A stretch of DNA of 63,735 nt, the filler included, from Coriobacteriales bacterium (lineage in GTDB: Bacteria > Actinomycetota > Coriobacteriia > Coriobacteriales > UBA8131), in the NCBI GenBank assembly GCA_031263105.1. It is 6 parts of 6 records of this genome, joined end to end, with 100 filler letters (N's around TTAATTAATTAA, not from the genome) between each part and the next. Parts side by side here need not be neighbours in the genome. Positions count along the whole stretch, not along the records: positions 12,756 to 36,928 come from JAISGJ010000056.1; 5 more parts are not named here. One strand, 5' to 3'. How positions within the stretch are numbered: position 1 is the stretch's first letter; every line of letters starts with the position of its first letter. Shown piece after piece: positions 1-58,121 of the stretch. The notes under the pieces were generated by a model that was given only the letters and a program-made list of their open reading frames with translations, had not been told where the DNA came from and did no database searches. The position numbers were made by a program, and so were the translations under genes.

Positions 1-132
1 AATCTTCGACCGCGAAGCGGTCGACCGTAGGTCGAAGGCCCCCTCCGACCTACTGTTGGTCGCTTCGCGACCAAAGATTCCTCGACTCCGCTTCGCTGCG
101 CTCGGAATGACAGTGGGGGCGTGAACAGTAAC
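1..132. mobile_element. Family A MITE, right part (window starts inside it)
   Basis: GATTCCTCG...GCTCGGAATGACAGTGGGGGCGTGAACAGTAAC right terminus matches the TSD-bearing copies at 14893-15127 and 51939-52050. Confidence 0.8.
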
Positions 133-686: not shown

Positions 687-2105
687 ATGCAGGCACATAT
701 CGTCGGTCGCGAAAAGGAGATAAGCGCATTGCTGGGCTGTTACGGCTCCTCCGAGTCGGAGTTCGTAGCCATTTACGGACGTCGTCGTGTGGGCAAGACC
801 TACCTGGTCAAAGAGCTTTTTTCGCACGAGCTCACGTTTCTCGCCGAAGGCATTTTGGAGGAGGGCCATGCAACACAGCTGCAGAACTTCAACGACGAGC
901 TGGCGAATCACGGTGGCGTTCAACCGCCTGCCAAAGACTGGCTTGCGGCTTTCAACAACCTTGCGAGGCTTATCGAGGCATCGCCCGCAGAGGGCAAGAA
1001 GGTCGTCTTCCTCGATGAGGTCTCCAGCATGTGCACGGCGAACTCCGGCTTTCTTGCAGCATTGGCGCATTTTTGGAACAGGTGGGCCTCGCCGCGCCGC
1101 GACGTGCTGCTGATCGTCTGCGGCTCAGCCACTTCCTGGATCGTCAAGAACATCGTCGGCGACAAGGGCGGCCTGCATAACCGCATCACCAGGTCCATCT
1201 TGCTGCAGCCTTTCACGCTCAGGGAATGCGAGGATTTCTACCAGCGGCACAACATCCGCTACACGCGGTATCAGATTGTCGAGGCCTATATGGTCTTTGG
1301 CGGCATCCCTTACTACATGCGGCTCATGAGGCCGCAGTTCAGCCTGCAGCAAAACGTGGATGCGCTCTACTTCGAGGACGGCGCCCCGCTGCGCGACGAG
1401 TACGAACATCTCTTCAGGTCGCTTTTCACGGATGCCGGAAGGCATGTCAGAATCGTCGAGGCGCTCGCGACGAACGGCAAGGGGCTGATGCGCAAGGAGA
1501 TAGCAAGACAGACCGGCCTCCCCAACAGCGGCAGGCTCACCGAGCTCTTGCAGGAGCTCATCCAGTGCGGCTTTGTGCGGGAATACCTCTACTTCGGCCA
1601 GAGGAAACGGGATCGGCTTTACCAGCTTATCGACCCGTTCAGCATCTTCCATCTGCGTTTTGCGGCCAAACAGCGAGCGTATACGAGCGACTATTGGCTG
1701 CATTTCAGCACCACGCCGGCGCACGGGGCTTGGAGCGGGTTCGCCTTCGAGCGCGTCTGCCTCTGGCACGTTCCCCAGATAAAGCACGCTTTGGGCATAT
1801 CCGGCGTGCATACGGAGGTGTCCGCCTGGCGCAGCAGGTCGGCCGACCCGGGTGCCCAGATAGACCTCGTCATCGACCGCGCGGACAGCGTCATCAACCT
1901 CTGTGAGGCGAAGTACGCGTCCGGTGCCTACGGCATTGACAAGACGGAGTCCCAGCGCCTGCGGGAGAAGCGCGGCGCGTTCATGGCCGAGACGGGCACG
2001 CGCAAGCTGGCGCACATTACCATGATCACCACCTTCGGATTGAAAAGGAACGCCTACGCCGGCGAGATCCTGTTTCAGCTGACCCTGGACGACCTGTTTG
2101 GGTGA
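687..2105 (+). CDS. AAA-type ATPase (archaeal ATPase-like) with C-terminal PD-(D/E)XK-like domain, paralog 1
   Basis: Walker A GRRRVGKT, Walker B VVFLDE, CGSATSW, GGIPYY, C-terminal QIDLVIDR...NLCEAK. Confidence 0.8.
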   Translation: MQAHIVGREKEISALLGCYGSSESEFVAIYGRRRVGKTYLVKELFSHELTFLAEGILEEGHATQLQNFNDELANHGGVQPPAKDWLAAFNNLARLIEASPAEGKKVVFLDEVSSMCTANSGFLAALAHFWNRWASPRRDVLLIVCGSATSWIVKNIVGDKGGLHNRITRSILLQPFTLRECEDFYQRHNIRYTRYQIVEAYMVFGGIPYYMRLMRPQFSLQQNVDALYFEDGAPLRDEYEHLFRSLFTDAGRHVRIVEALATNGKGLMRKEIARQTGLPNSGRLTELLQELIQCGFVREYLYFGQRKRDRLYQLIDPFSIFHLRFAAKQRAYTSDYWLHFSTTPAHGAWSGFAFERVCLWHVPQIKHALGISGVHTEVSAWRSRSADPGAQIDLVIDRADSVINLCEAKYASGAYGIDKTESQRLREKRGAFMAETGTRKLAHITMITTFGLKRNAYAGEILFQLTLDDLFG

Positions 2106-4188: not shown

Positions 4189-4475
4189 GATGTTGTTCAC
4201 ACCTCTCACTGTCATCCCGAGCCTGTCGAGGAACCTTTGGGTTCGAGCGCCCGGAGAACAGTCCGGCGGACTGTTCTCAGCGAGAACGGGCCGACAGGCC
4301 CACGGAACGCGAAGCGACCAACTGCGATTGGGAGGCGCGTCTGCCCGCAGTCGGCTGCTTCGCGTTCCGTGGGCCTGTCGGCCCGTCCTCACTGAAAACG
4401 CGGTGCGTTTTCCGGGCGCTCGAACCCGAGGATTCCTCGGCAGGGCTCGGAATGACAGTGAGGGGTGTCAGTAGC
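4189..4475. mobile_element. Family A MITE, full-length with degenerate ends
   Basis: CACTGTCATCCCGAGC...GCTCGGAATGACAGTG arms; flanked by CGGAAGAC (4181-4188) and CGGAAGGC (4476-4483), a 7/8 TSD. Confidence 0.75.
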
Positions 4476-4530: not shown

Positions 4531-6222
4531 ATGGAGGCACGGCAGGCAGATACGAGGAAAGATGGGGCGCGGCAGCCCTCGGTCTGGCTGTCGAGGCTCC
4601 TCAGTGCGCTCTTTGTTCTCGTGCTTGCAAGCAGCGCCTTCGCCCTGTTGCTGCAAAGCCCCTTGAGCCCCCTCAGCATCCAGTATCCCGGCTCCGAGTC
4701 CTCGCTGTACCTCTACAGCGCCACGCAGCTGCTGGATGGGAACGTGCTCTATCGGGACATCTTCGACGTCCACGCCCCGCTCGTCTCCTTCATCGACACC
4801 TTCGGCCTCTTTGTCGGCGGGCCGACGGGGGTCTGGGCGCTCGAAGTTGCCTTCCTCGTCCTCACCTTGGTCCTCATGTTCGCTGCGCTGAGGCCCTATG
4901 TCGGTGCCCTCGCCACGTTTCTTACCTGCCTGTTCTTTGTGGCGCTCGTGGGGTACAGCCTGCAGGGTGGCAACCAGGCGGAGGAGTACGCGCTGCCGTT
5001 CCAGGTGCTTGCGCTGGCGGCTTCCATGGACTGCATCGTGAGGCGCAGGATCACCCTTCCCAGTATCTATCTGACGGGGATAAGCGCGGCCCTGACCTTC
5101 TTCCTCAAACCGGATCTGGTGCTGTTCTGGCTTCCCTTCGTCGTGGTCATCTGCGTGATGGCGATCAGGCAGGAGGGTTGGGCGCTCGCGTTGGTGCACC
5201 TGGTGACACTCGTCTTCAGCGCGGCCCTCGTCTTTGTCATCATCCTCCCGTGGCTCTACGTGAACAACGCCCTGGCCAGCTGTTACGAGCAGGTGGTCTC
5301 CTTCTATCGCGACTGCCTTTCCCTTGTCACGCCGCAAGAGCGCCTCGATGCCCTGCTTTATTTCGTCGGACGGCCCTCCTTCGTCCTCACGGTGGTCATC
5401 TCGCTGTTTGCCCTCGTCAGGCAGCTTCTGCTTTGTCGTTCGCGCCCCACTGTCATTCCGAGCGGAGGCGCTGCCGGAAGCAGCGCCGCAGCCGAGGAAT
5501 CCTTGGGTCCGAGTGCGCAGGCATCGGGTGCCGGGTCGCAGCTGCTGGACTCAGGGTCGCCCGCGCCAGCCTCCCGGTCGCAGCTGCCTGGCGAGGAGGG
5601 CTCGCTCTTCGGGCGCAGCACCCTGCCCCTCCTCATGGCGAACCTCGCGGCCACGCTCCTGGTCTTTGCGGCGATGGCCTATTCGGGGCGGCCTGACGAG
5701 CACCTGGCCCTCCAAGGGCTCGTCTGCCTGGTCGTCCCGCTTGCCTACCTCATCGACCTTGCGGTGCGCAGGGTGCGGGAAGGCCTCGGCCTGCGCGCCG
5801 TGCTCGGCCTGGCGCTCGTGGTGCTCCTTGCGCTGTCGTTGGCGGTGCCGGGCGTGGTGACGGGCGCCTCGCGCATACAGGAGCAACGGACGGAGGATGC
5901 GGCCCTCGTCGAGCAGAGGGAGGTGGTCGAGGCGGTGCGGCGCAACCTTGCTTACGACGAGCCCATCATCGTCTTTGGCGATGACTGCTGGGTCTACACG
6001 GCGGCAGGCACCTACTCGGCGACCAAATACCCCGCCCAGCCCTTCAGCGCCTCGTTCAGGCCCGACCTGGACAGCGACTTCTACCGCCAAGTGGGCGTGG
6101 CGGAGGCGGCCCTGCTCGTCGGAAGGCTCGACGAAGGCAGCATCGAGCGCTATCCGGGCATCGGGGACTATCGCCTGGTGTTCAAGAACGCCCGCTACGA
6201 GGTCTACGCCCACTCCGAGTGA
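4531..6222 (+). CDS. Polytopic membrane protein, probable GT-C (PMT-like) glycosyltransferase
   Basis: Many TM segments; N-terminal LYRDIFDVHAP loop and EEY motif resemble GT-C-like proteins; next to sugar genes. Confidence 0.55.
   Translation: MEARQADTRKDGARQPSVWLSRLLSALFVLVLASSAFALLLQSPLSPLSIQYPGSESSLYLYSATQLLDGNVLYRDIFDVHAPLVSFIDTFGLFVGGPTGVWALEVAFLVLTLVLMFAALRPYVGALATFLTCLFFVALVGYSLQGGNQAEEYALPFQVLALAASMDCIVRRRITLPSIYLTGISAALTFFLKPDLVLFWLPFVVVICVMAIRQEGWALALVHLVTLVFSAALVFVIILPWLYVNNALASCYEQVVSFYRDCLSLVTPQERLDALLYFVGRPSFVLTVVISLFALVRQLLLCRSRPTVIPSGGAAGSSAAAEESLGPSAQASGAGSQLLDSGSPAPASRSQLPGEEGSLFGRSTLPLLMANLAATLLVFAAMAYSGRPDEHLALQGLVCLVVPLAYLIDLAVRRVREGLGLRAVLGLALVVLLALSLAVPGVVTGASRIQEQRTEDAALVEQREVVEAVRRNLAYDEPIIVFGDDCWVYTAAGTYSATKYPAQPFSASFRPDLDSDFYRQVGVAEAALLVGRLDEGSIERYPGIGDYRLVFKNARYEVYAHSE
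5435..5505. repeat. Family A left-arm fragment inside a CDS
   Basis: CCCCACTGTCATTCCGAGC...GCCGAGGAATCC in frame, encoding PTVIPS...AEES. Confidence 0.7.
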
Positions 6223-6294: not shown

Positions 6295-6610
6295 GCCGGA
6301 CACGTCCGTCCCCTTTCTGTCCCCGTGAAGAATTCTCCTCCTTCGGAGGGGTGGCGCGAAGCGCCGAGGTGGTTCCAAGGCGGCGGGCCTAGGCCCGCCG
6401 CCTTAGCGCAGTGAGCGCAAGCGAACGGAGCGTCGCGCTGACAAGCGGCGGAGCCGCGTCGCACGCCGCGAAGCGGCCAACCGTGACCGGGAGACGCTTC
6501 TGATTGCAGTCGGCTGCCTTGCAGCCGAAGATTCCTCGGCTTCGGGGCTTCGCCCCTGCGCTCGGAATGACAGTGAGGTGTGAGCATTGACCGAGGTGTG
6601 AACATTGACG
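6295..6610. repeat. Mosaic of palindromic repeats (family B-like arm, CTCCTCCTTCGGAGGGGTGG unit, family A right arm)
   Basis: CCGTCCCCTTTCTGTCCCC (~6307-6325), CTCCTCCTTCGGAGGGGTGGCGCGAAGCGCC (~6335-6365), GATTCCTCGG...GCTCGGAATGACAGTG (~6530-6575). Confidence 0.6.
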
Positions 6611-12655: not shown

Positions 12656-12755
12656 NNNNNNNNNNNNNNNNNNNNNNNNNNNNNNNNNNNNNNNNNNNNT
12701 TAATTAATTAANNNNNNNNNNNNNNNNNNNNNNNNNNNNNNNNNNNNNNNNNNNN
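12656..12755. other. Artificial contig-joining spacer (also 36929-37028, 42326-42425, 50203-50302, 57803-57902)
   Basis: Identical 100-bp N-run/TTAATTAATTAA/N-run with stops in all frames. Confidence 0.97.
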
Positions 12756-12871: not shown

Positions 12872-13597
12872 TCAGGGTGCGAACAGGGCAAGGGCCTGTT
12901 TGTTGGGTTCGACGAAGCGGGGCTTCACCAGGCGTTCCAGGGCGGTTTCGAAGGCCGACCGGGGCAGGTCGATGGCTCCGGTGGACAGGGCGGCTCCGAG
13001 CAGGACGACGTTGAGGGCACGCGGCAATCCGACGGCGGCGACGGCGCGTGCGCCATCGACGGCAAGGAGCCTCCCGATGCGGCCGCACGCCTCGCAGGCA
13101 TGCAGATAGTCGAGCTCGGCGGTGCCGTCGTAGGCCACGGTGCCGAGGGTCGCCGTCACCGGCTTCTGCGTCTGCCTTGCGGTTACGACGGTGCCGCCTT
13201 CGCGCAGGTAGGCGAGGGCGCGCACGGTCTCTCCCGGCTCGAAGCCGAGCAGCAGGTCGGCGTGTCCCAAGGGCACGAGGGGGCTGAGCGGGTGAGCGTG
13301 ACAGTGAGCGTGACAGCGGGGACGGTACTGTTTTGTCACCGCCCGCGCATGCGCGGGCTGTGACAAAACAGTACCGTCCCCGCTGTCACGCTGCACCGTC
13401 CCCCCTGTCACACCCTCCCCCTGGTGCGGCGGCGACCCGATGCGCACGTGGCCGAGGACGCTGCCGCCGCGCTGGGCCATGCCGATGGTCTCGGCGGTAC
13501 GGACTGTCCGCCCCTCAAGCAGGGCCGCCTGTGCGAGCAGCTTGGAGGCGAGGACCGTTCCCTGTCCGCCGACGCCGGCGACGACGAAGTCGCTCAT
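12872..13597 (-). CDS. iorB: Indolepyruvate:ferredoxin oxidoreductase beta subunit
   Basis: GVGGQGTVLAS, AETIGMAQRGGSVLGHVR, ADLLLGFEP, NVVLLGA; directly downstream of iorA. Confidence 0.92.
   Translation of the reverse strand: MSDFVVAGVGGQGTVLASKLLAQAALLEGRTVRTAETIGMAQRGGSVLGHVRIGSPPHQGEGVTGGTVQRDSGDGTVLSQPAHARAVTKQYRPRCHAHCHAHPLSPLVPLGHADLLLGFEPGETVRALAYLREGGTVVTARQTQKPVTATLGTVAYDGTAELDYLHACEACGRIGRLLAVDGARAVAAVGLPRALNVVLLGAALSTGAIDLPRSAFETALERLVKPRFVEPNKQALALFAP
13307..13392. repeat. Family B 86-bp near-perfect palindrome inside iorB
   Basis: 33-bp perfect arms AGCGTGACAGCGGGGACGGTACTGTTTTGTCAC around an 18-bp palindromic centre; one mismatch overall. Confidence 0.9.
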
Positions 13598-15951
13598 CGC
13601 TTGCCGCCCGCCGTCGAGCAGGCCGCCCCCGCCGTCTCCGCCCCGCCCGCCGCCGTGTCAGGAGCGCCTCCGTTCGTCCCGCCCGCCGTCCCGCCTTTGT
13701 CGGCAACGGGCGCGATGGCATCAAAGGCACAGAGGGAGGCACAGAGGCCGCAGCCATAGCAGAGCGCCTTGTCGACGGCGACCTGGTCGTCTTGCACCAT
13801 GAGCGCGGGGCATCCGATGCTGCGGAAGCAGACGAGGCAGCCGGTACAGGCCTCATTCGAGACGGCCATGCGCGGCTTCGGCGCAGCGACCGTGATGCAG
13901 GGGGCCCGGAAGACGACCGCGCTCGGCCCTTTGAACGCAACGGCGGCCCGCACCGTCTCGATGGCGCTGCGCGTCTCAAAGGGGTCGGCCTCGGCGACAT
14001 GCCCCACGCCCAAGGCACGCAGGATACCGGGTATGCGCAGCGCGCGCTCCGCGTCCCGCGCGGAGGCGTCGGCGCTCATGCGCATGCCGGTTCCGGGATG
14101 GGGCTGGGAGCCGGTCATGGCGGTGGTCGAGTTGTCGAGTATGCAGAGGGTGACGTCCGCCTGGTTGTAGGCGGCGTTCACCACGCCGGTAAGCCCGCTG
14201 GCAAAAAAGGTCGAGTCGCCGACGAACCCAAGGTGCGCCACGTCGGGCTGCGCCCAGTCCATGCCCTGCGGGATGGTGAGTCCCGCCCCCATGCACACGC
14301 AGGTGTCCACCATGTCGAGCGGCAGGGCGTTGCCGAGGGTGTAGCAGCCGATGTCCCCGCTGAACACCGCCTTGCGGCCCCGAAGGGCACGCTTCACCGC
14401 GAAGAACGACGCCCGATGGGGGCAGCCGGCGCAGAGCACGGGCGGCCTCGCAGGGAGCGTTGGCGCAACGGGCGTGTCGGATGCGGAGGGAGCGGGCGGG
14501 GCGGCGGATGTGGTGGGAGCGGCGGGCGCAACGGAGGCTGTCTGTGGGGAGAAGTTCGGGCCGTGCGGGACGGCGCCGCCCCGCATGCCCCCGCTCTTCT
14601 CCCCAAGCTGCTCCTGCAGATACGCCCTGAGCTGCTTCTCGATCGAGGCGACCGAGTTCTCGCCCGCCGTTGCCGCATGCCCCGTGAGCTTGCCGTGTAT
14701 CTCGACGGGCAGGTGGTGCCTGCCCGCGCATTGCAGCAGCTCCCGCTCGATGACCGGCTCAAGCTCCTCGAAGACGAGCACTTTGTCGAGGCCTTCGAGG
14801 AAGGCGCGGGCGGCCGTCTCGGGGAAGGGGAAGGGCGTGCTGACCTTGAGCAGGCGCAGCGGAACCCGCGCGGCAGGGGAGTCCTCTTGGGCGTTACCGT
14901 ACACCCCCCCACTCACCCCCCCACTGTCACCCCGAGCCACCCCCCCACTGTCATTCCGAGCGAAGCGAAGGTCCTTCGCTGTGCTCAGGATGAACTCCGC
15001 CGAGGAATCCTTGGGCGCATCAGCGCCCAACTGCAGCCGGGGGGACGCATCTGCCCGCAGTCGGCTGCTTCGCAGCCGAAGATTCCTCGGCTTCGCTCGG
15101 AATGACAGTGGGGGCGTGTACAGTAACTCTTGGGCGAGTTGCGCGAGTGCGTCGTGCAGGTAGGCGTAGCTGATGCCCCCTGCGGCGATGCCGATCGTCG
15201 CATCTTCCGCCTCGAGCTCGCGCCCCGCCTCCGCCTCGCAAGCGCCCGCCGCCGCACCGGCCCCCAGCCCGCTGAACTCCGCAGCAATCCTCGCCAGGCG
15301 CTCGTTGATCTCGAGGTGCCCCTCGAAGGCGCGGCGGGGGAAGACCACCCAGCGCGGCCCCCGGGAGAAGCCGTCTATCGCATGGGGCACGAAGGCGACC
15401 TCGGTCTCGACCGGTGCCGTGCCATGGCAGATGCGGGTGGTGGGGCGGACGATGACCGGCGTCGCGTAACGTTCCGAGAGGTCGAAGGCGTAGGGCACCA
15501 TCGCAAGGGCCTCCTCGGGGGTCGAGGGGTCGAGGAGGGGCACCTTGGCGAACTGCGCGTACTGCCGCGTGTCCTGCTCCGTCTGCGACGAGATGGGCCC
15601 GGGGTCGTCGGCGACGATGAGGACGAGGCCGCCCTGCACGCCGAGGTAGGGCAGGGACATGAGGGCGTCGGAAGCGACGTTGAGACCCACCTGCTTCATG
15701 GTCACGAGGGCGCGTGCGCCTGCGAATGACGCCCCCGCCCCCACCTCGAGCGCGGCCTTCTCGTTCGTGGACCACTCGACGTGGACGGCGGGTCGGCCCG
15801 TGCCGTCAAGGCCGAGGGCGGCAACGTGCGCCGCCATCGCCTCGAGCACCTCGGAGGACGGGGTGCCGGGATAGCCGCTCACCACGTTGACGCCCGCCCT
15901 GAGCGCACCAAGGGCAAGCGCCTGGTTTCCCATGCAGAGCTCGAGGCTCAT
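13594..15951 (-). CDS. iorA: Indolepyruvate:ferredoxin oxidoreductase alpha subunit
   Basis: GYPGTPSSE, WSTNEKAA, SSQTEQD, RPPVLCAGCPHR, GDIGCY, GDSTFF, LDNSTTAMTG, two C-terminal 4Fe-4S motifs. Confidence 0.95.
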   Translation of the reverse strand: MSLELCMGNQALALGALRAGVNVVSGYPGTPSSEVLEAMAAHVAALGLDGTGRPAVHVEWSTNEKAALEVGAGASFAGARALVTMKQVGLNVASDALMSLPYLGVQGGLVLIVADDPGPISSQTEQDTRQYAQFAKVPLLDPSTPEEALAMVPYAFDLSERYATPVIVRPTTRICHGTAPVETEVAFVPHAIDGFSRGPRWVVFPRRAFEGHLEINERLARIAAEFSGLGAGAAAGACEAEAGRELEAEDATIGIAAGGISYAYLHDALAQLAQELLYTPPLSFRAKPRNLRLRSSRLRADASPRLQLGADAPKDSSAEFILSTAKDLRFARNDSGGVARGDSGGVSGGVYGNAQEDSPAARVPLRLLKVSTPFPFPETAARAFLEGLDKVLVFEELEPVIERELLQCAGRHHLPVEIHGKLTGHAATAGENSVASIEKQLRAYLQEQLGEKSGGMRGGAVPHGPNFSPQTASVAPAAPTTSAAPPAPSASDTPVAPTLPARPPVLCAGCPHRASFFAVKRALRGRKAVFSGDIGCYTLGNALPLDMVDTCVCMGAGLTIPQGMDWAQPDVAHLGFVGDSTFFASGLTGVVNAAYNQADVTLCILDNSTTAMTGSQPHPGTGMRMSADASARDAERALRIPGILRALGVGHVAEADPFETRSAIETVRAAVAFKGPSAVVFRAPCITVAAPKPRMAVSNEACTGCLVCFRSIGCPALMVQDDQVAVDKALCYGCGLCASLCAFDAIAPVADKGGTAGGTNGGAPDTAAGGAETAGAACSTAGGKR
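14893..15127. mobile_element. Family A MITE, complete 235-bp copy in frame inside iorA
   Basis: Starts GTTACCGTACAC, ends GTGTACAGTAAC; perfect 8-bp TSD TCTTGGGC at 14885-14892 and 15128-15135. Confidence 0.92.
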
Positions 15952-16005
15952 GTTGTCCTGCTCGGGCGGGCGTGCGGTCGTTGCGTGCGGCCTGTCGGAC
16001 GCGGC

Positions 16006-17895
16006 CTACTCGCCCGCGCCCGCAGCGCCCGCATCGGCGCCCTCGGCACCTGCGTCGGTGCCCGCGTCGCCCTCGCCCTCGGCTGCGCCCTCGCCTGCGT
16101 CAGCGCCTGCGTCAGCGCCCTCGCCTTCGGCGCCCGTGCTGTCCCCGTTGACGGAGAGCAGCTCGATGTCGAAGGTCAGGGTCGCGTTCGCAGGGATGCT
16201 GCCCTGGCCGGCCTCGCCGTAGGCGAGCGACGGCGGGATGACGAGCTGGCGCGAGCCGCCCACCCTCATGCCGGGAAGGCCCTGGTCCCAGCCCTGGATG
16301 ACCTGGCCTGCGCCGATGGTGACCGGATAGGGCTCGCCCCTCTCGACGGAGGAGTCGAAGACCGTCCCGTCCTCCAGATAGCCGGTGTAGTGCACCATGA
16401 CCTCGTCGCCCTCTTTGGCCTCCGGCCCGGTTCCCACGACGATGTCGGTCTTCACGAGCTCGCCTGTGTCGGTTTCCGTCCCTTCGTCCCCGGCCGTGTC
16501 GGCGAGGGCCATGTCCACTGCGTAGGAAAGCCCTTCCGGCATGGGGTTGATGACGACCTCGTCCGAGTTGACAAGGTCGTCGAAGTACGTCTGCTGCGCC
16601 TCCGACTTCTTCTGGCTGACGAAGGTCTCGGTCAGCTTCTCGACGAGGCTTGTGGGAACGGAGGCGAAGTCGATCGTCGGCTCGGGTGTGGTCGTGACGT
16701 CGCCCTCAGCGCCGCCCTCGGTCCCGGCCTCGCCCTCACCCTCGGTCGCCGCTTCGGCTTCGGGAGCATCCTCGCCTTCGGTCCCGCCCTCGCCCTCGGT
16801 TGCAGGCGTGGCATCGGGCAGGACGAACTCCTCGGTCCACTTGACGATCATAAAGGCGTACTGCGGCGTGGTCTCGTCCCCAAAGTTCGTCTCGAGCACC
16901 TCGGATATCTCGTTCACGGGAAGGGCGTCAAGGGCCGCCTGCACGTCCACGGGAAGCGTCTGGGCGGCGCCCCAGCCGAGGTCGCCTCCGTCGGTCTGGG
17001 CATTGGCGGCTTGCGAGTACTCCTTGGCGACCTCGTCGAAGTCGGTGCCCTCGCGCAGCTTCGCGAGGGCCTCGTCGGCCTTCGGCCTCACGACGTCTGC
17101 CGTGTTGGCCGACGTTTCGACCGCCGCGTCCCCGTCACCGGCATCTGCGGTGCCGTCTCCGGCACCCTCCGTGCCGGCATCCCCGGCCGCCGCGTCCCCG
17201 GTGTCCCCAGTACCCTCGGTGCCAGTGCCGTCCCCGGCATCTGCGGCCCCTTCGCCCTCCGTGCCCGTATCCTCGGCAGCAGGCGCGTCGAAGGGCAGGT
17301 AGATCACAGAGACGCGCTTGCCGGCATAGGGGGAGGCGTTCTCGACCACATAGGTCTCGATCTCCTCCTGCGTGGGCGTGGCATCGGCGACCTGTGACTC
17401 CACGAGCTGCTGGGAGACGTTGCGCGCCTCGAGCTCCGTGCGGTAGGCGGCCTCGCTGGCGTAGCCCATGGATTTCAGATAGTCCTCATAGGTGCCATCG
17501 GAACCCTCGATGCTCTTCTTGCTGTCCTCGATCTCCTGGTCGATCTGCGCGGCGTCCGGCGTGATGCCCGCCGCCTCGGCCCTCTGCAGGATGAGCGTGA
17601 AGATGGCGAACTGGTTGCGGATGACGAACTCCCTGATCGTCTCGGGGGTGAAGTTCGCGTTCTTCAGCAGCTGCGCCCATGCGACGTCGTCTCGGGGCTC
17701 CCCTGTGGTCTGGTCGAGCCGGAAGCTCTCGATGCGGACGGTCACGTCGGCCTCGGATATCTCGGTGCCGTTGACCGTTGCGGCGACCAGTGACACGGGG
17801 TCGGCGGGCTTTGCGCAGCCGATGAGCGCTACGCTCAGGAGCAGGGAAAGCACCAGTGCACTGGCGGTCGTTATGACGCTTCTCGTGAATCTCAT
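16006..17895 (-). CDS. Lipoprotein foldase: SurA-N/PrsA-like, parvulin-like and C-terminal FKBP PPIase domains
   Basis: Lipobox LIGC; AATVNGTEI; FDEVAKEYS...GGDLGW (parvulin-like); VHYTGYLEDGTVFDSS, QVIQGWDQG, IPPSLAYG (FKBP). Confidence 0.85.
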   Translation of the reverse strand: MRFTRSVITTASALVLSLLLSVALIGCAKPADPVSLVAATVNGTEISEADVTVRIESFRLDQTTGEPRDDVAWAQLLKNANFTPETIREFVIRNQFAIFTLILQRAEAAGITPDAAQIDQEIEDSKKSIEGSDGTYEDYLKSMGYASEAAYRTELEARNVSQQLVESQVADATPTQEEIETYVVENASPYAGKRVSVIYLPFDAPAAEDTGTEGEGAADAGDGTGTEGTGDTGDAAAGDAGTEGAGDGTADAGDGDAAVETSANTADVVRPKADEALAKLREGTDFDEVAKEYSQAANAQTDGGDLGWGAAQTLPVDVQAALDALPVNEISEVLETNFGDETTPQYAFMIVKWTEEFVLPDATPATEGEGGTEGEDAPEAEAATEGEGEAGTEGGAEGDVTTTPEPTIDFASVPTSLVEKLTETFVSQKKSEAQQTYFDDLVNSDEVVINPMPEGLSYAVDMALADTAGDEGTETDTGELVKTDIVVGTGPEAKEGDEVMVHYTGYLEDGTVFDSSVERGEPYPVTIGAGQVIQGWDQGLPGMRVGGSRQLVIPPSLAYGEAGQGSIPANATLTFDIELLSVNGDSTGAEGEGADAGADAGEGAAEGEGDAGTDAGAEGADAGAAGAGE

Positions 17896-18102
17896 GGAAC
17901 AACCTTTCGTATAAGACCTTGGCGGCACAAGCCCCTCATCAAAGGTGCGCCTGCCAACCCCGGCCTCGCGCCGTGAGGCACGCAGACGAATCGGGCGACA
18001 GGTCCCCTGTGAAAGCCACTCACCTCGACCGAGGAGACAGACAATCATATATTGTCTCACAACCCGCCCCCTCCTGTCATCTTGCGTCCCTGTGGTACCA
18101 TC

Positions 18103-18285
18103 ACTACTGTCATTCCGAGCGCATCGGAGCTCCACTGTCATTCCGAGCGCAGCGCAGCGGAGCCGAGGAATCTTTGGACACGCAGTGTCCAACCGGGCCG
18201 GTCGGACACTGCGTGCCCGAGGATTCTCACGCTGTGCGCCCTTGCGGGTCCTCCGCTCAGAATGACAGTGGGGAGCGACCAGTAA
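18103..18285. mobile_element. Family A MITE copy with duplicated left arm; no clear TSD
   Basis: Two ACTGTCATTCCGAGC arms, internal GGACACGCAGTGTCCAAC module, right arm CTCAGAATGACAGTGGGG. Confidence 0.7.
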
Positions 18286-18322
18286 GCGACCAGCAACTAC
18301 CCGAGAAAGGAGGGGAGGCCGC

Positions 18323-20155
18323 ATGTCGGACAAGAGCACAGCCAAAACCACGGCAAGGCCCGCAGCAAAGCCTGCATCGCCCTCGCCCACCATGCGGACG
18401 CTGCACTTCTATTGGCAGGTCACTGCGGCGCAGATGCCCCTGTTCGTCCTCGCGCTCGTCTCGACGCTCGGCTTCGTCTTCCTCCTGTCGTTCGCCAACC
18501 CCTGGGTCGTCGCGCAGGTCATCGACCGGGTAAGCGCCTCCTCGGTCGCCCCCGACGAGGTGCTTGCGGTCTTCGGCCCCTCCATCCTGCTGCTCATCGG
18601 CGTCAATGTGCTGGGGCAGCTGAGCAGCAAGCTCCAGGACTACAGCGTGTGGAAGCTCGAGATACGCGCGAACTACCTGCTCGCGACCCGCGCCTTCGAC
18701 ACGCTGTCCAACCAGTCGATGACCTTCCACTCCAACCGCTTCGGCGGCTCGCTCGTCAGCCAGACCCAGAAGTTCCTGAGCGCGTACACCATGCTCATGG
18801 AGAACCTCGTCTATGCGGTCATCCCGGTCGTCATGACGGCCGTGTTCACCGTGATGATGCTCGTGGGCACCGTGCCCCTGTACGTCGTCATCCTCGCCGT
18901 GCTGCTCGTGGTCTATGTGACGGTCGCCTACCTCATGTACAAACGTGTGCTGCCGCTCAACAGCCGCGCCGCCGCAGCGCAGAACGCGCTTTCCGGCGAG
19001 CTCTCCGACAGCATCACGAACATCCTTGCGGTCAAGACCTACGGACGCGAGGGCTACGAGCGCGGGCTGTTCGATGCCGCCAACCGCGACGTGGTGCACG
19101 CGGACTCGGTGCGCATGCGCTCCTCCACCCTGCGCGGGGCGATAACCAGCACCATCATCGTCGTCATCATGATGCTGGCCGTCGTCTTCATCACGGGCGG
19201 CAACGCCTGGTTCGGGATAAGTGCGGGCACCCTCGTCATGATGTTCACCTATACCTACGCGCTGACGATGCAGTTCAACCGCATCAATCTGATGTTCCAG
19301 ATGATAAACCGGGGCTTCGGCGACGCGCACGACATGACCCTCGTCCTCGACGAGCCGACGCTCGTGGCCGACGTGGACGGCGCAGCCGCGCTTTCGGTCG
19401 CGCAGGGGAGCATCGACTGCGACGATTTGACCTTCTGGTATGCGGACGCGAACGAGGAGAGCAAGGTCTTCCGTAACTTCTCGCTGCATATCCCTGCGGG
19501 CCAGAGGCTCGGGCTCGTGGGGCGCTCGGGCTCGGGCAAGACGACGCTGACGACCCTGCTGCTGCGCCTGTCCAACCTCCAGGCGGGCAGCATCCGTATC
19601 GACGGGCAGGACATCTCACAGGTCACCCAGGTGAGCCTGCGCCAGCAGATCGCCTACGTGCCGCAGGAGCCGCTGCTGTTCCATCGCACGGTGCGGGAGA
19701 ACATCGCCTACGGCTGCCCCCATGCCTCCGACGACGCGATACGCGAGGCGGCCGTCAAGGCCAACGCGCTCGAGTTCATAGAGCAGCTTCCCTACGGCTT
19801 CGAGACCGTGACCGGCGAGCGCGGCGTGAAGCTCTCCGGCGGGCAGCGCCAGCGCATCGCCATCGCCCGCGCCATCCTCGCCGACCGTCCCATACTGGTA
19901 TTGGACGAGGCCACCTCGGCCCTCGACTCGGAGAGCGAACGGCTCATCCAGGATGCGCTGCGCAACCTCATGGAGGGGCGCACGGCCATTGTCGTGGCAC
20001 ATCGGCTTTCCACCATCGCGAGCCTCGACCGCATCGTCGTGCTCTCCGACGGCTGCATCGTCGAGGACGGCACCCATGCCGACCTCGTGCAGGCCGAAGG
20101 CGAATACGCCTACCTCTGGAGCCGACAGACCGGCGCCTACCTCACAGACGAGTGA
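18323..20155 (+). CDS. ABC exporter, fused permease/ATPase
   Basis: TM domain plus GRSGSGKTT, LSGGQRQR, LDEATSALD. Confidence 0.93.
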   Translation: MSDKSTAKTTARPAAKPASPSPTMRTLHFYWQVTAAQMPLFVLALVSTLGFVFLLSFANPWVVAQVIDRVSASSVAPDEVLAVFGPSILLLIGVNVLGQLSSKLQDYSVWKLEIRANYLLATRAFDTLSNQSMTFHSNRFGGSLVSQTQKFLSAYTMLMENLVYAVIPVVMTAVFTVMMLVGTVPLYVVILAVLLVVYVTVAYLMYKRVLPLNSRAAAAQNALSGELSDSITNILAVKTYGREGYERGLFDAANRDVVHADSVRMRSSTLRGAITSTIIVVIMMLAVVFITGGNAWFGISAGTLVMMFTYTYALTMQFNRINLMFQMINRGFGDAHDMTLVLDEPTLVADVDGAAALSVAQGSIDCDDLTFWYADANEESKVFRNFSLHIPAGQRLGLVGRSGSGKTTLTTLLLRLSNLQAGSIRIDGQDISQVTQVSLRQQIAYVPQEPLLFHRTVRENIAYGCPHASDDAIREAAVKANALEFIEQLPYGFETVTGERGVKLSGGQRQRIAIARAILADRPILVLDEATSALDSESERLIQDALRNLMEGRTAIVVAHRLSTIASLDRIVVLSDGCIVEDGTHADLVQAEGEYAYLWSRQTGAYLTDE

Positions 20156-36706: not shown

Positions 36707-37028
36707 GGTCGCCTTCATGTTCGGACGGGCTGCGGACGCCCCCGGCGGCGGGCTGCGGGCGGGCCGCTGTGTCGCGGCCCGAGAGTCGGACACTACCATT
36801 GTAGGCCAAAGTGGAGATTCCGGGCTGGCGGTAACGCTGTTCTGAAATTCGGGTAACGCAATTCCGCGAAGCGGGTAACAGCGGCGCGGCACTCTTTGCT
36901 GTATCAATCACTGGTTATAAAGCCGCACNNNNNNNNNNNNNNNNNNNNNNNNNNNNNNNNNNNNNNNNNNNNTTAATTAATTAANNNNNNNNNNNNNNNN
37001 NNNNNNNNNNNNNNNNNNNNNNNNNNNN

Positions 37029-42325: not shown

Positions 42326-42646
42326 NNNNNNNNNNNNNNNNNNNNNNNNNNNNNNNNNNNNNNNNNNNNTTAATTAATTAANNNNNNNNNNNNNNNNNNN
42401 NNNNNNNNNNNNNNNNNNNNNNNNNGGGGGCGAACAGCAACGAACGCTGTCGAAAGAACAGTGGGAGCAATGCCGGACGAGCGGGGCTGACGCCGTTTCG
42501 CCGCAGTGGCATTTATCACCCTTTTGGGGGGCGAAGAGGAGGGCTGGCCCTCCTTACACTATTCAATAATGAGCACGGTCATCGCTCGCTGTGCCAGAAC
42601 AGATTGTACGCAGCACAAAAGAGGAAGCCATAAGGAGTTTTTTTGC

Positions 42647-49930: not shown

Positions 49931-50202
49931 GTTACACGTCACACCCCGCTCACCCCGACCCCACCGTCACCCCGACCCCACCGTCACCCCGAGCCCCCAC
50001 CGCCACCCCGACCCCACCGCCACCCCGACCCCACCGCCCCCCCGACCCCCACTGTCATTCCGAGCCCCGCCGAGGAATCCTTGGACACGCAGTGTCCAAC
50101 GGCAGGCCAGGGGGCCCCTCGACCTGTGGTCGACCGCTGGCGCGGCCGAGGATTCCGCGCCAGGCTCGGCATGCCAGTGGGGCACGGGGTGGCGGTGGGG
50201 TC
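49931..50202. mobile_element. Family A MITE with amplified subterminal units, cut by gap
   Basis: GTTACACGTCACACCCC start, repeated CCCCACCGTCACCCCGA units, CACTGTCATTCCGAGC, GGACACGCAGTGTCCAAC module. Confidence 0.75.
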
Positions 50203-50302
50203 NNNNNNNNNNNNNNNNNNNNNNNNNNNNNNNNNNNNNNNNNNNNTTAATTAATTAANNNNNNNNNNNNNNNNNNNNNNNNNNNNNNNNNNNNNNNNNN
50301 NN

Positions 50303-50344
50303 CCTCGGCGGGGCTCGGAATGACAGTGGGAGGCGTACAGTAAC
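50303..50344. mobile_element. Family A MITE end fused to the 3' end of a CDS
   Basis: GCTCGGAATGACAGTGGGAGGCGTACAGTAAC. Confidence 0.75.
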
Positions 50345-57569: not shown

Positions 57570-57918
57570 CTCGCTGCTCCGTTACGGTAAGGGGGGACGA
57601 GGCCGAGCCGGCACCTTCCCCGCTGCATGTACGATGAGCCTTGATTGTACCATGATGTGATACCCTATCAGGGAACAGAGTGCGCCGGGGCGGCGCCCGC
57701 CGGCCGGGGCGGCACCCGCCGGCCGGGGCGGCGGGCGCCGGCCGGGGCGGCGCCGACCCCCACTGCCACCCGGCCCCCACTGTCATCCCGAGCCTGCCGA
57801 GGNNNNNNNNNNNNNNNNNNNNNNNNNNNNNNNNNNNNNNNNNNNNTTAATTAATTAANNNNNNNNNNNNNNNNNNNNNNNNNNNNNNNNNNNNNNNNNN
57901 NNGCCGCTTAGGGAGATG

Positions 57919-58121
57919 GTTACTGAGCTCGCACCCCACTGTCATTCCGAGCCCCGCCGAGGAATCTTTGGACACGCAGTGTCCAACGGTAGGTCAGGGG
58001 CCCCTCCGACCTGCGGTCGGCTGCTGGTGCGGCCGAAGATCCCTCGGCTGCGGGGGCTTCGCCCCCTTCGCTCGGGATGACAGTGGGGCTCGGGATGACA
58101 GTAGGGTGTGAACATAGTAAC
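57919..58121. mobile_element. Family A MITE, both termini present but no TSD match
   Basis: GTTACTGAGCTCGCACCCCACTGTCATTCCGAGC...GGGATGACAGTAGGGTGTGAACATAGTAAC; flanks GGGAGATG and CTTTGTGC differ. Confidence 0.75.

Follow-up and report, generated by a model that had tools for sequence, protein, structure and literature searches.

What becomes of a conserved enzyme gene when a mobile repeat family overruns the genome that carries it? A 63,735-nucleotide stretch of DNA from the Coriobacteriales bacterium assembly GCA_031263105.1 (hereafter the window) raises this question at iorA, the gene for the alpha subunit of indolepyruvate:ferredoxin oxidoreductase, which contains a transposable element of the miniature inverted-repeat type (MITE) in its reading frame. 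A first-pass annotation had described the element as complete, recently mobile and tolerant of coding regions, adding exactly 81 codons to an intact enzyme, or else as a hairpin that is removed or bypassed at the RNA level. Our analysis indicates that the locus very probably represents an in-frame MITE insertion that was filtered by selection and is translated as a loop in a functional IorA protein. The window consists of several contigs of a metagenome-assembled genome (MAG) joined by runs of N, with iorA on contig C204 (window positions 12756-36928). The MAG itself derives from a termite-gut metagenome and comprises 250 contigs and 2.9 Mb at 64.5% GC, with 86% completeness and 6.5% contamination.

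The insert in iorA has the anatomy of a complete transposable element. On direct reading it occupies positions 14893-15127, begins with GTTACCGTACAC and ends with GTGTACAGTAAC, and is bracketed by two perfect copies of an 8-bp target-site duplication (TSD). Element and duplication together make up a 243-nt insert with zero stop codons in the iorA frame (two of its six frames are open), which corresponds to IorA residues 276-356 and contains 13 lysines or arginines and eight aspartates or glutamates. The protein junctions read ...LAQE-LLYTPPLSFRAK at one end and VYGN-AQEDSP at the other, with the AQE tripeptide duplicated. The 235-bp length, the perfect 8-bp TSD, the 81 stop-free codons and the repeated AQE are thus all as first claimed. 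A repeat search finds that the flanking direct repeat is 10 nt long rather than 8 (CTCTTGGGCG, at 14884-14893 and 15127-15136, with a spacing of 243), so that each element boundary is uncertain by one base. The claim of a MITE with terminal inverted repeats (TIRs) and TSD is likewise borne out, by the 21-nt terminal arms, the 8-bp repeat, and an excess of TSDs across the whole family, which we describe below; a longer pair of sub-terminal arms carries the family core. The only open reading frames (ORFs) that cross the element are read-through frames, and it contains no transposase gene. Its terminal motif, CACTGTCATTCCGAGCGAAGC, is matched 13 times in the window with up to three mismatches, versus 0 matches in 100 shuffles.

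The host gene appears from its domains, its neighbors and its architecture to be iorA, with a putative substrate specificity. Pfam places POR_N (residues 15-182), TPP_enzyme_C (533-680) and Fer4-type matches (697-748) in a single frame, as the first-pass annotation had held for the thiamine pyrophosphate (TPP)-binding and Fe-S motifs. Neighbors in a structural atlas carry the name IorA, the nearest IorA clusters are commonest in Actinomycetota, orthologs share the domain architecture, and iorB is adjacent. A protein search of 30 relatives and the MAG itself returned matches in 29 of the 31 genomes; these matches split into query residues ~1-272 and ~364-780, with only a few codons lying between the two parts in the relative. 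The insert is absent from all 10 aligned orthologs (same family or order; 50-67% identity), in line with the earlier expectation of no insert in close homologs. It sits in a linker whose length and sequence vary among orthologs, just before a conserved RLLKVSTPFPFPE block. For an empty-site comparison, local identity to the orthologs does not exceed 75%, and at the DNA level the linker cannot be aligned. A metagenome scan found no near-identical empty-site allele among the best 80 of 279 relatives, where the top identity was 65%, and none of these 80 carries the insert, as judged by match length.

The enzyme around the insert is well conserved. IorA retains 177 of the 180 columns that are invariant across the 10 orthologs, including the TPP-binding and cysteine motifs, and the three changes are conservative (F/Y, V/A and V/I). 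The 785 codons show no frameshift, and G+C content at third codon positions (GC3), read in the gene frame, is 0.80-0.93. With IorA as the query, the MAG yielded no second iorA; the best other match has 32% identity to residues 5-181. The structure prediction that the first-pass annotation called for presents the insert as a low-confidence coil between confidently predicted elements: in an AlphaFold2 model based on an 11-sequence alignment (mean predicted local distance difference test score, pLDDT, 67.9), residues 277-361 have pLDDT values of ~26-33 and no secondary structure, and lie between a confident helix (259-277) and a confident strand (365-370). The modeled segment fits a tolerated loop, with the caution that low confidence is no proof of disorder. 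Among solved structures, IorA residues 6-176 weakly match the alpha subunit of a 2-keto acid:ferredoxin oxidoreductase (1yd7), which gives no aid in placing the insert.

Metagenome assemblies bear directly on the two junctions. Three sequencing runs, all termite-gut metagenomes from one study, were compared; one of them, X1, is possibly the source sample of the MAG and hence not independent support. In X1, a 668-nt contig at depth 21.4 matches 14305-14972 and a 588-nt contig at depth 24.2 matches 15089-15676, both with 0 differences and at depths resembling the flanks. Mapping over the junctions, a check proposed beforehand, therefore finds each of them crossed by X1 contigs without differences, and no joint that skips the element occurs in any of the three runs. 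X2 also has a contig at each junction: the left one extends 21 nt into the element and differs from the window at 23 positions, and the right one extends 30 nt and differs at 46. A strain that is ~6-8% diverged therefore has an element at the same site, and the iorA insertion is not very recent.

The element belongs to a family that has overrun this one genome. Its 16-mer core terminus, CACTGTCATTCCGAGC, occurs 1242 times in the MAG (with up to two mismatches). Inverted pairs of it, 50-400 nt from one terminus to the other, number 308, and their inner size is most often 120-139 nt; another 216 unpaired terminus clusters bring the family to at least 524 loci in 2.9 Mb, and the paired copies total 64,099 nt, or 2.2% of the assembly. 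Outside the core, the terminus logo reads GTTACnGTTCACACCCC. Perfect flush direct repeats of 7 nt or more, most often 8 bp, flank 75 of the 276 testable pairs, versus a mean of ~6.2 of 276 when flanks are randomly re-paired. The copy closest to the iorA element, on contig C230, is 92% identical over 190 nt and has its own 8-bp TSD (GTATCATC); it is 36 nt shorter, and the extra bases of the iorA copy lie mostly in its terminal-subrepeat region. With its small size, lack of a transposase gene, TIRs, fixed-length TSD and dispersed copies, the element is a genuine MITE, save for an identified autonomous partner. We rejected an assignment to the REP/BIME-type extragenic palindromes, which are 20-40 nt long and have no TSD, for an intragenic 235-bp element with TIRs and TSD. 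The burst is lineage-specific: with up to one mismatch, the motif is matched 992 times in this genome, versus 0-11 times per genome in a sample of 120 others from its order, only eight of which show any match. For 271 of the 308 elements a partner covers 80% or more of the length; the median identity to the best such partner is 93.7%, and 85 of the 271 reach 96% or higher. The description of the element as recently mobile thus holds for the family, which has young copies, and is not supported by the iorA copy, which is 92% identical to its nearest relative and whose two junctions recur in a second sample with ~6-8% different flanking gene sequence.

An in-frame insertion of this kind could mean that the family is adapted to coding regions, in the manner argued for the Rickettsia palindromic elements (RPEs): favored by selection for open frames and for lengths divisible by three, and engaged in systematic remodeling of proteins. 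The family-wide figures make this unlikely, and the first-pass description of the element as coding-tolerant finds no support in them. The lengths of 70 TSD-delimited inserts are spread 28/22/20 over the residues modulo 3, and these inserts have a mean of 1.46 open frames of six (n = 70), versus 2.71 for random genomic segments of equal length; about 10% of insertions into genes are expected by chance to be both in frame and open. In a frame-independent flank test based on GC3, both flanks are non-coding in 187 of 251 testable paired copies, one flank is coding in 60, and both are coding in only four, two of these with flanks on opposite strands and two (iorA and a copy on C176) with flanks on the same strand. 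The C176 copy (C176:10498-10833) sits directly after a stop codon and was rejected as intragenic. The test missed the insertion in rpe described below, so its sensitivity is imperfect. A relaxed version allowing offsets of up to 140 nt returned mostly neighboring same-strand genes, and was not used to count disrupted genes.

A separate screen took every ORF that reads through an element and extends 50-60 codons or more beyond it in both directions, 43 from paired copies and 68 from unpaired clusters (with one duplicate listing and three scanned earlier), and scanned all of them with Pfam. Domains on both sides of the repeat, or a domain split by it, are found in iorA, rpe, dapF, a class-V aminotransferase gene and mfd, and about 1% of the 524 loci lie inside such Pfam-verified genes. 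All three forward frames of the terminus occur among the predicted peptides, as PLSFRA, HCHSER and TVIPSE types: PLSFRA...ARNDSG in IorA, Rpe and the aminotransferase, a HCHSERSEAKPRNPW-type peptide in DapF and Mfd, and TVIPSE in a giant surface-protein ORF. The subrepeat units in these proteins are 24 nt in IorA and Rpe, six residues in the aminotransferase, and 39 nt in the giant ORF, all multiples of three. A second and different palindrome lies in frame in iorB, where it adds ~40-44 aa that are missing from the orthologs in genomes G008 and G007; it is itself repeated in the genome (83 BLAST segments), and therefore both enzyme subunits bear repeat inserts. At least six real genes besides iorA thus carry an in-frame repeat (rpe, dapF, the aminotransferase gene, mfd, the surface-protein gene at two sites, and iorB with its other palindrome), and this, together with a forward terminus that is stop-free in every frame and used in all three, is what speaks for coding adaptation. 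Set against it, the even spread of lengths, the shortage of open frames, the low share of loci in verified genes and the predominance of non-coding flanks fit random insertion followed by selection.

Other candidates from these searches were set aside. In the ORFs of alr, dnaB, a class-I tRNA synthetase, a GT2 glycosyltransferase, an ADH-like protein and enolase, Pfam domains occur only downstream of the repeat, and we read these as upstream intergenic copies. A motif match in tatC (C216:4267-4282) falls inside a single unbroken Pfam match; the best reading is a chance 16-mer, of which we estimate that ~1.5 would be expected.

We propose that a transposase that cuts with an 8-bp stagger acted in trans on a non-autonomous MITE, which then entered iorA at the linker joining the N-terminal TPP domain of the protein to the next domain. 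The resulting allele would have survived purifying selection because its 243 nt are stop-free in the gene frame and the site tolerates variation in length. The insert would most likely be translated as an 81-residue, probably disordered, basic loop, and the conservation of the surrounding protein suggests that IorA is still functional. The in-frame state would then reflect selection acting on many random insertions of a burst family, and not a special coding adaptation.

Several observations weigh against this proposal. The element is nowhere spanned in full by one contig or read. Its middle is covered only by unitigs of 70-82 nt, themselves repeat sequence, so that its precise interior length, and with it the frame, depends on the path taken by the MAG assembler. 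The ORF screen is blind to intragenic copies that are out of frame, so that the in-frame counts are lower bounds. The 31 changed codons listed for X2 divide into 16 synonymous and 15 nonsynonymous, a count drawn from 37 listed differences, with 37 further differences left out. The mRNA across the element is predicted to fold into a structure of -146 kcal/mol (z = -7.4), which could hinder translation. Finally, an autonomous partner, which would bear GTTACnGTTCAC ends and an 8-bp TSD, did not emerge from the 86%-complete MAG. Transposases of the IS66, IS256, ISL3, IS1595 and IS6 families give 8-bp duplications, and a search for the corresponding Pfam families (PF03050, PF00872, PF01610, PF12762 and PF13610, covering IS66, IS256, ISL3, IS1595 and IS6/IS240) gave 0 matches in the MAG. 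TSD-flanked pairs of GTTACnGTnCAC ends spaced 600-4000 bp apart were absent from it, and the four pairs of core termini that lie 400-3000 bp apart enclose no obvious transposase ORF. Repeats are often lost from MAGs, and an autonomous partner is usual for MITEs and not strictly defining. Given the incomplete MAG, the missing partner is weak evidence.

The lack of a spanning record bears on the idea that the in-frame picture is an assembly artefact, with the repeat interior misthreaded or the two halves of the gene otherwise separated. Such an error would accord with a 250-contig MAG with 6.5% contamination, in which 188 of 500 contig ends fall within 300 nt of a family terminus motif. One X1 contig (depth 20.6), whose shorter side has only 21 letters, moreover joins position 14507 directly to 14941 and so omits 433 nt; this joint is probably a repeat-driven mapping effect, because the 668-nt contig passes both places without a difference. 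We nevertheless hold an artefact to be very unlikely, since both junctions lie in error-free contigs at flank depth and appear again in the diverged strain of the second sample, and since a perfect TSD and an ortholog alignment that continues exactly to either side of the insert are unlike a chimera.

The predicted RNA structure is, in turn, an argument for removal or skipping of the insert after transcription, whether by intron-like splicing, hairpin excision or translational bypass, so that the protein would lack the 81 residues. The RNA is predicted to form a very stable rod, and the 8-nt direct repeats could in principle mark take-off and landing sites. This alternative, which the first-pass annotation had also raised, strikes us as highly improbable. 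No Rfam intron or ribozyme matches positions 13000-19000 at E <= 1, where only sub-threshold microRNA-model matches on the iorB hairpin were returned, and no intein or Hint domain is found in IorA by Pfam at E <= 1e-3. The intragenic copies found are all open and in frame, a state that removal of the insert would make needless, although the ORF screen is biased toward such copies. The excerpted texts of PMC10969869 and PMC3184786 offer no precedent for it among bacterial MITEs. A scan of positions 14600-15400 found no promoter-like or terminator-like site.

The strain codon changes, for their part, bear on whether iorAB might be a decaying, unexpressed operon in which the open frame is a matter of luck in a GC-rich genome. 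Repeat inserts in both genes, the rarity of stop codons at 64.5% GC and the fact that only half of the listed changes are synonymous would all sit well with decay. Against this, half synonymous exceeds the rough quarter that we estimate, by judgment and not by computation, for an unconstrained gene. The retention of 177 of 180 invariant positions, an intact frame over 785 codons, a GC3 of 0.80-0.93 and the failure of the IorA query to find a second iorA in the MAG make decay extremely improbable, and we retain selection-filtered insertion into a functional IorA as the best account of the locus.

Table 1. Features of the iorA locus, further family copies in the window, and repeat-bearing sites elsewhere in the MAG. 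Positions without a contig name are window positions.
Feature	Position	Strand	Remarks
iorA, indolepyruvate:ferredoxin oxidoreductase alpha subunit	13594-15951	-	785 aa; host of the insert
iorB, POR family	12872-13597	-	241 aa; next gene of the operon
Left TSD copy, TCTTGGGC	14885-14892		Gene strand GCCCAAGA, codons A-Q-E
Right TSD copy, TCTTGGGC	15128-15135		
MITE, GTTAC...GTAAC	14893-15127		235 bp; on the iorA strand, 78 codons plus the duplicated AQE
Left terminal inverted arm	14893-14913	+	Pairs with 15107-15127; 21 nt, 90% complementary
Right terminal inverted arm	15107-15127	-	Partner of 14893-14913
Sub-terminal inverted arm with family core CACTGTCATTCCGAGCG	14938-14971	+	Pairs with 15085-15118; 34 nt, 91%
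Two tandem 24-nt terminal subrepeats	14906-14953	+	88% alike
Second, different near-perfect palindrome (GTGACAGCGGGGACGGTACTGTTTTGTCAC ... inverted)	~13297-13410		In frame in iorB
Another copy of the same MITE family (C204)	18104-18270		Upstream of the probable start (MRFTRS...) of a lipoprotein/FKBP-like ORF
Further family termini in the window	95-115, 4440-4460, 5448-5468, 6555-6575, 50050-50328, 57937-58085		
Runs of N in the window	12656-12755, 36929-37028, 42326-42425, 50203-50302, 57803-57902		
Repeat in rpe	C8:678-813		Extra residues ~102-185, absent in 19/19 matching relatives (20 searched)
Repeat in dapF	C103:2163-2277		~60 aa extra, absent from relatives
Repeat in class-V aminotransferase gene	C117:1646-1661		~125 aa extra, absent from relatives
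Repeat in mfd	C225:1178-1436		~100-155 aa extra, absent from relatives
Repeats in giant surface-protein ORF	C3:680-719 and 1949-2042		3,793 codons; terminus-derived repeats, GC3 0.87-0.97
Tandem-subrepeat examples	14906-14953 (window); C16:2886-2991, C11:9980-10072, C8:4714-4790		

The family also leaves its mark on annotation and assembly. Element termini bear tandem subrepeats (units of 18, 19, 24 and 39 nt were seen), with up to eight copies of the terminus motif on one side. The family as a whole gives rise to lengthy false ORFs and "hypothetical proteins", which annotators would do well to recognize. Elsewhere in the window, the upstream part of a 795-aa ORF on the minus strand (16006-18393) is translated MITE sequence (HCHSERRTRKG...), and its true start is probably the internal MRFTRSVITTASALVLSLLLSVALIGCAK, which resembles a lipoprotein-type signal. 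At contig ends, long runs of C followed by runs of G adjoin element termini (for example in C44, C49, C93 and C220) and are probably assembly artefacts at repeats.

The core of the element recurs far outside this genome. The exact core 19-mer, CCCCACTGTCATTCCGAGC, is found in at least 46 stretches (L090-L135) from genomes of many phyla, including MAGs labeled Dehalococcoidia, Chloroflexota, Acidobacteriota, Bacteroidales, Patescibacteria, Nitrospira, Phycisphaerae, Clostridia and Coriobacteriales, as well as a Luteimonas isolate. Ten of these loci were inspected: five have an inverted partner motif within 400 nt, with arms that in two of the five (Luteimonas and Nitrospira) form palindromes of ~80 nt, and on reading of their flanks all ten are without the outer GTTAC shell. 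Across the listed loci the 19-mer frequently forms palindromes of ~80 nt or tandem arrays, such as L097 with six copies ~150 nt apart. The core sequence strings, searched for in the main texts of papers, matched only unrelated primer coincidences in four papers, and literature searches on termite-gut MITEs and further on RPEs found nothing relevant. One tentative possibility is that the core represents an undescribed, cross-phylum superfamily of palindromes that gained a GTTAC shell and an 8-bp TSD in this lineage, burst to more than 500 loci, and is now a recurrent source of peptide loops; we offer this as a lead and not a result. If it were true, RPE-like "coding palindromes" would extend beyond obligate intracellular bacteria to one that lives in the gut.

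In-frame MITE insertion is a documented and thinly sampled route to new protein loops, and this genome stands out mostly for how large the burst is and how many conserved genes it has reached. In practical terms, the repeats also fragment the MAG. The genome could serve as a test bed for asking how often such insertions survive, which protein sites tolerate them, and whether basic disordered segments gain function.

The family can be compared with several known systems. Like MITEs derived from insertion sequences (IS) with 8-bp TSDs, it combines small size, TIRs, TSD and no coding capacity with high copy number and a burst in a single lineage; unlike them, it has no parent IS that we could find, and its core (CTGTCATTCCGAGCG...CGAGGAATC) also turns up across many phyla with no outer GTTAC shell around it. 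Repeats of several other bacteria also reach into protein genes, among them RPEs, the BRE of Bordetella (in ~9 genes) and the pneumococcal BOX, RUP and SPRITE, as described in part by Delihas (2011; PMC3184786), and the Coxiella elements QMITE1/2, which as excerpted from PMC5896051 form mostly 3'-end fusions in functional genes. To judge from these excerpts, our family resembles them in being a mostly intergenic, MITE-like repeat with occasional in-frame fusions, internal or at the 3' end. It differs in its far higher copy number (at least 524 loci in 2.9 Mb) and, with respect to QMITE, in that its inserts are internal to conserved enzymes and not at 3' ends.

The closest parallel in behavior is the RPE. 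A 2024 review (PMC10969869) states, in the portion available, that intragenic MITEs fused in frame with genomic ORFs are "not unusual", with RPEs as the extreme case, and summarizes Ogata et al. (2000) as describing elements of ~105-150 bp, nearly half of them intragenic in R. conorii. On the strength of these extracts, the family shares with RPEs a short palindromic repeat present in many copies in one genome and in frame in unrelated metabolic genes, where RPE copies are read, and those of this family would be read, as extra peptide segments compatible with the fold of the host protein. It differs from them in its host, a termite-gut MAG that is probably actinomycetotan and not an obligate intracellular alphaproteobacterium, in its clear TIRs and 8-bp TSD, and in that ~1% of its loci are intragenic, as opposed to nearly half in R. 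conorii in the account given there. The iorA insertion would thus work as an RPE does, a likeness drawn from behavior and not from sequence comparison: the kind of event is already known from Rickettsia, and the repeat family that produced it here is apparently undescribed.

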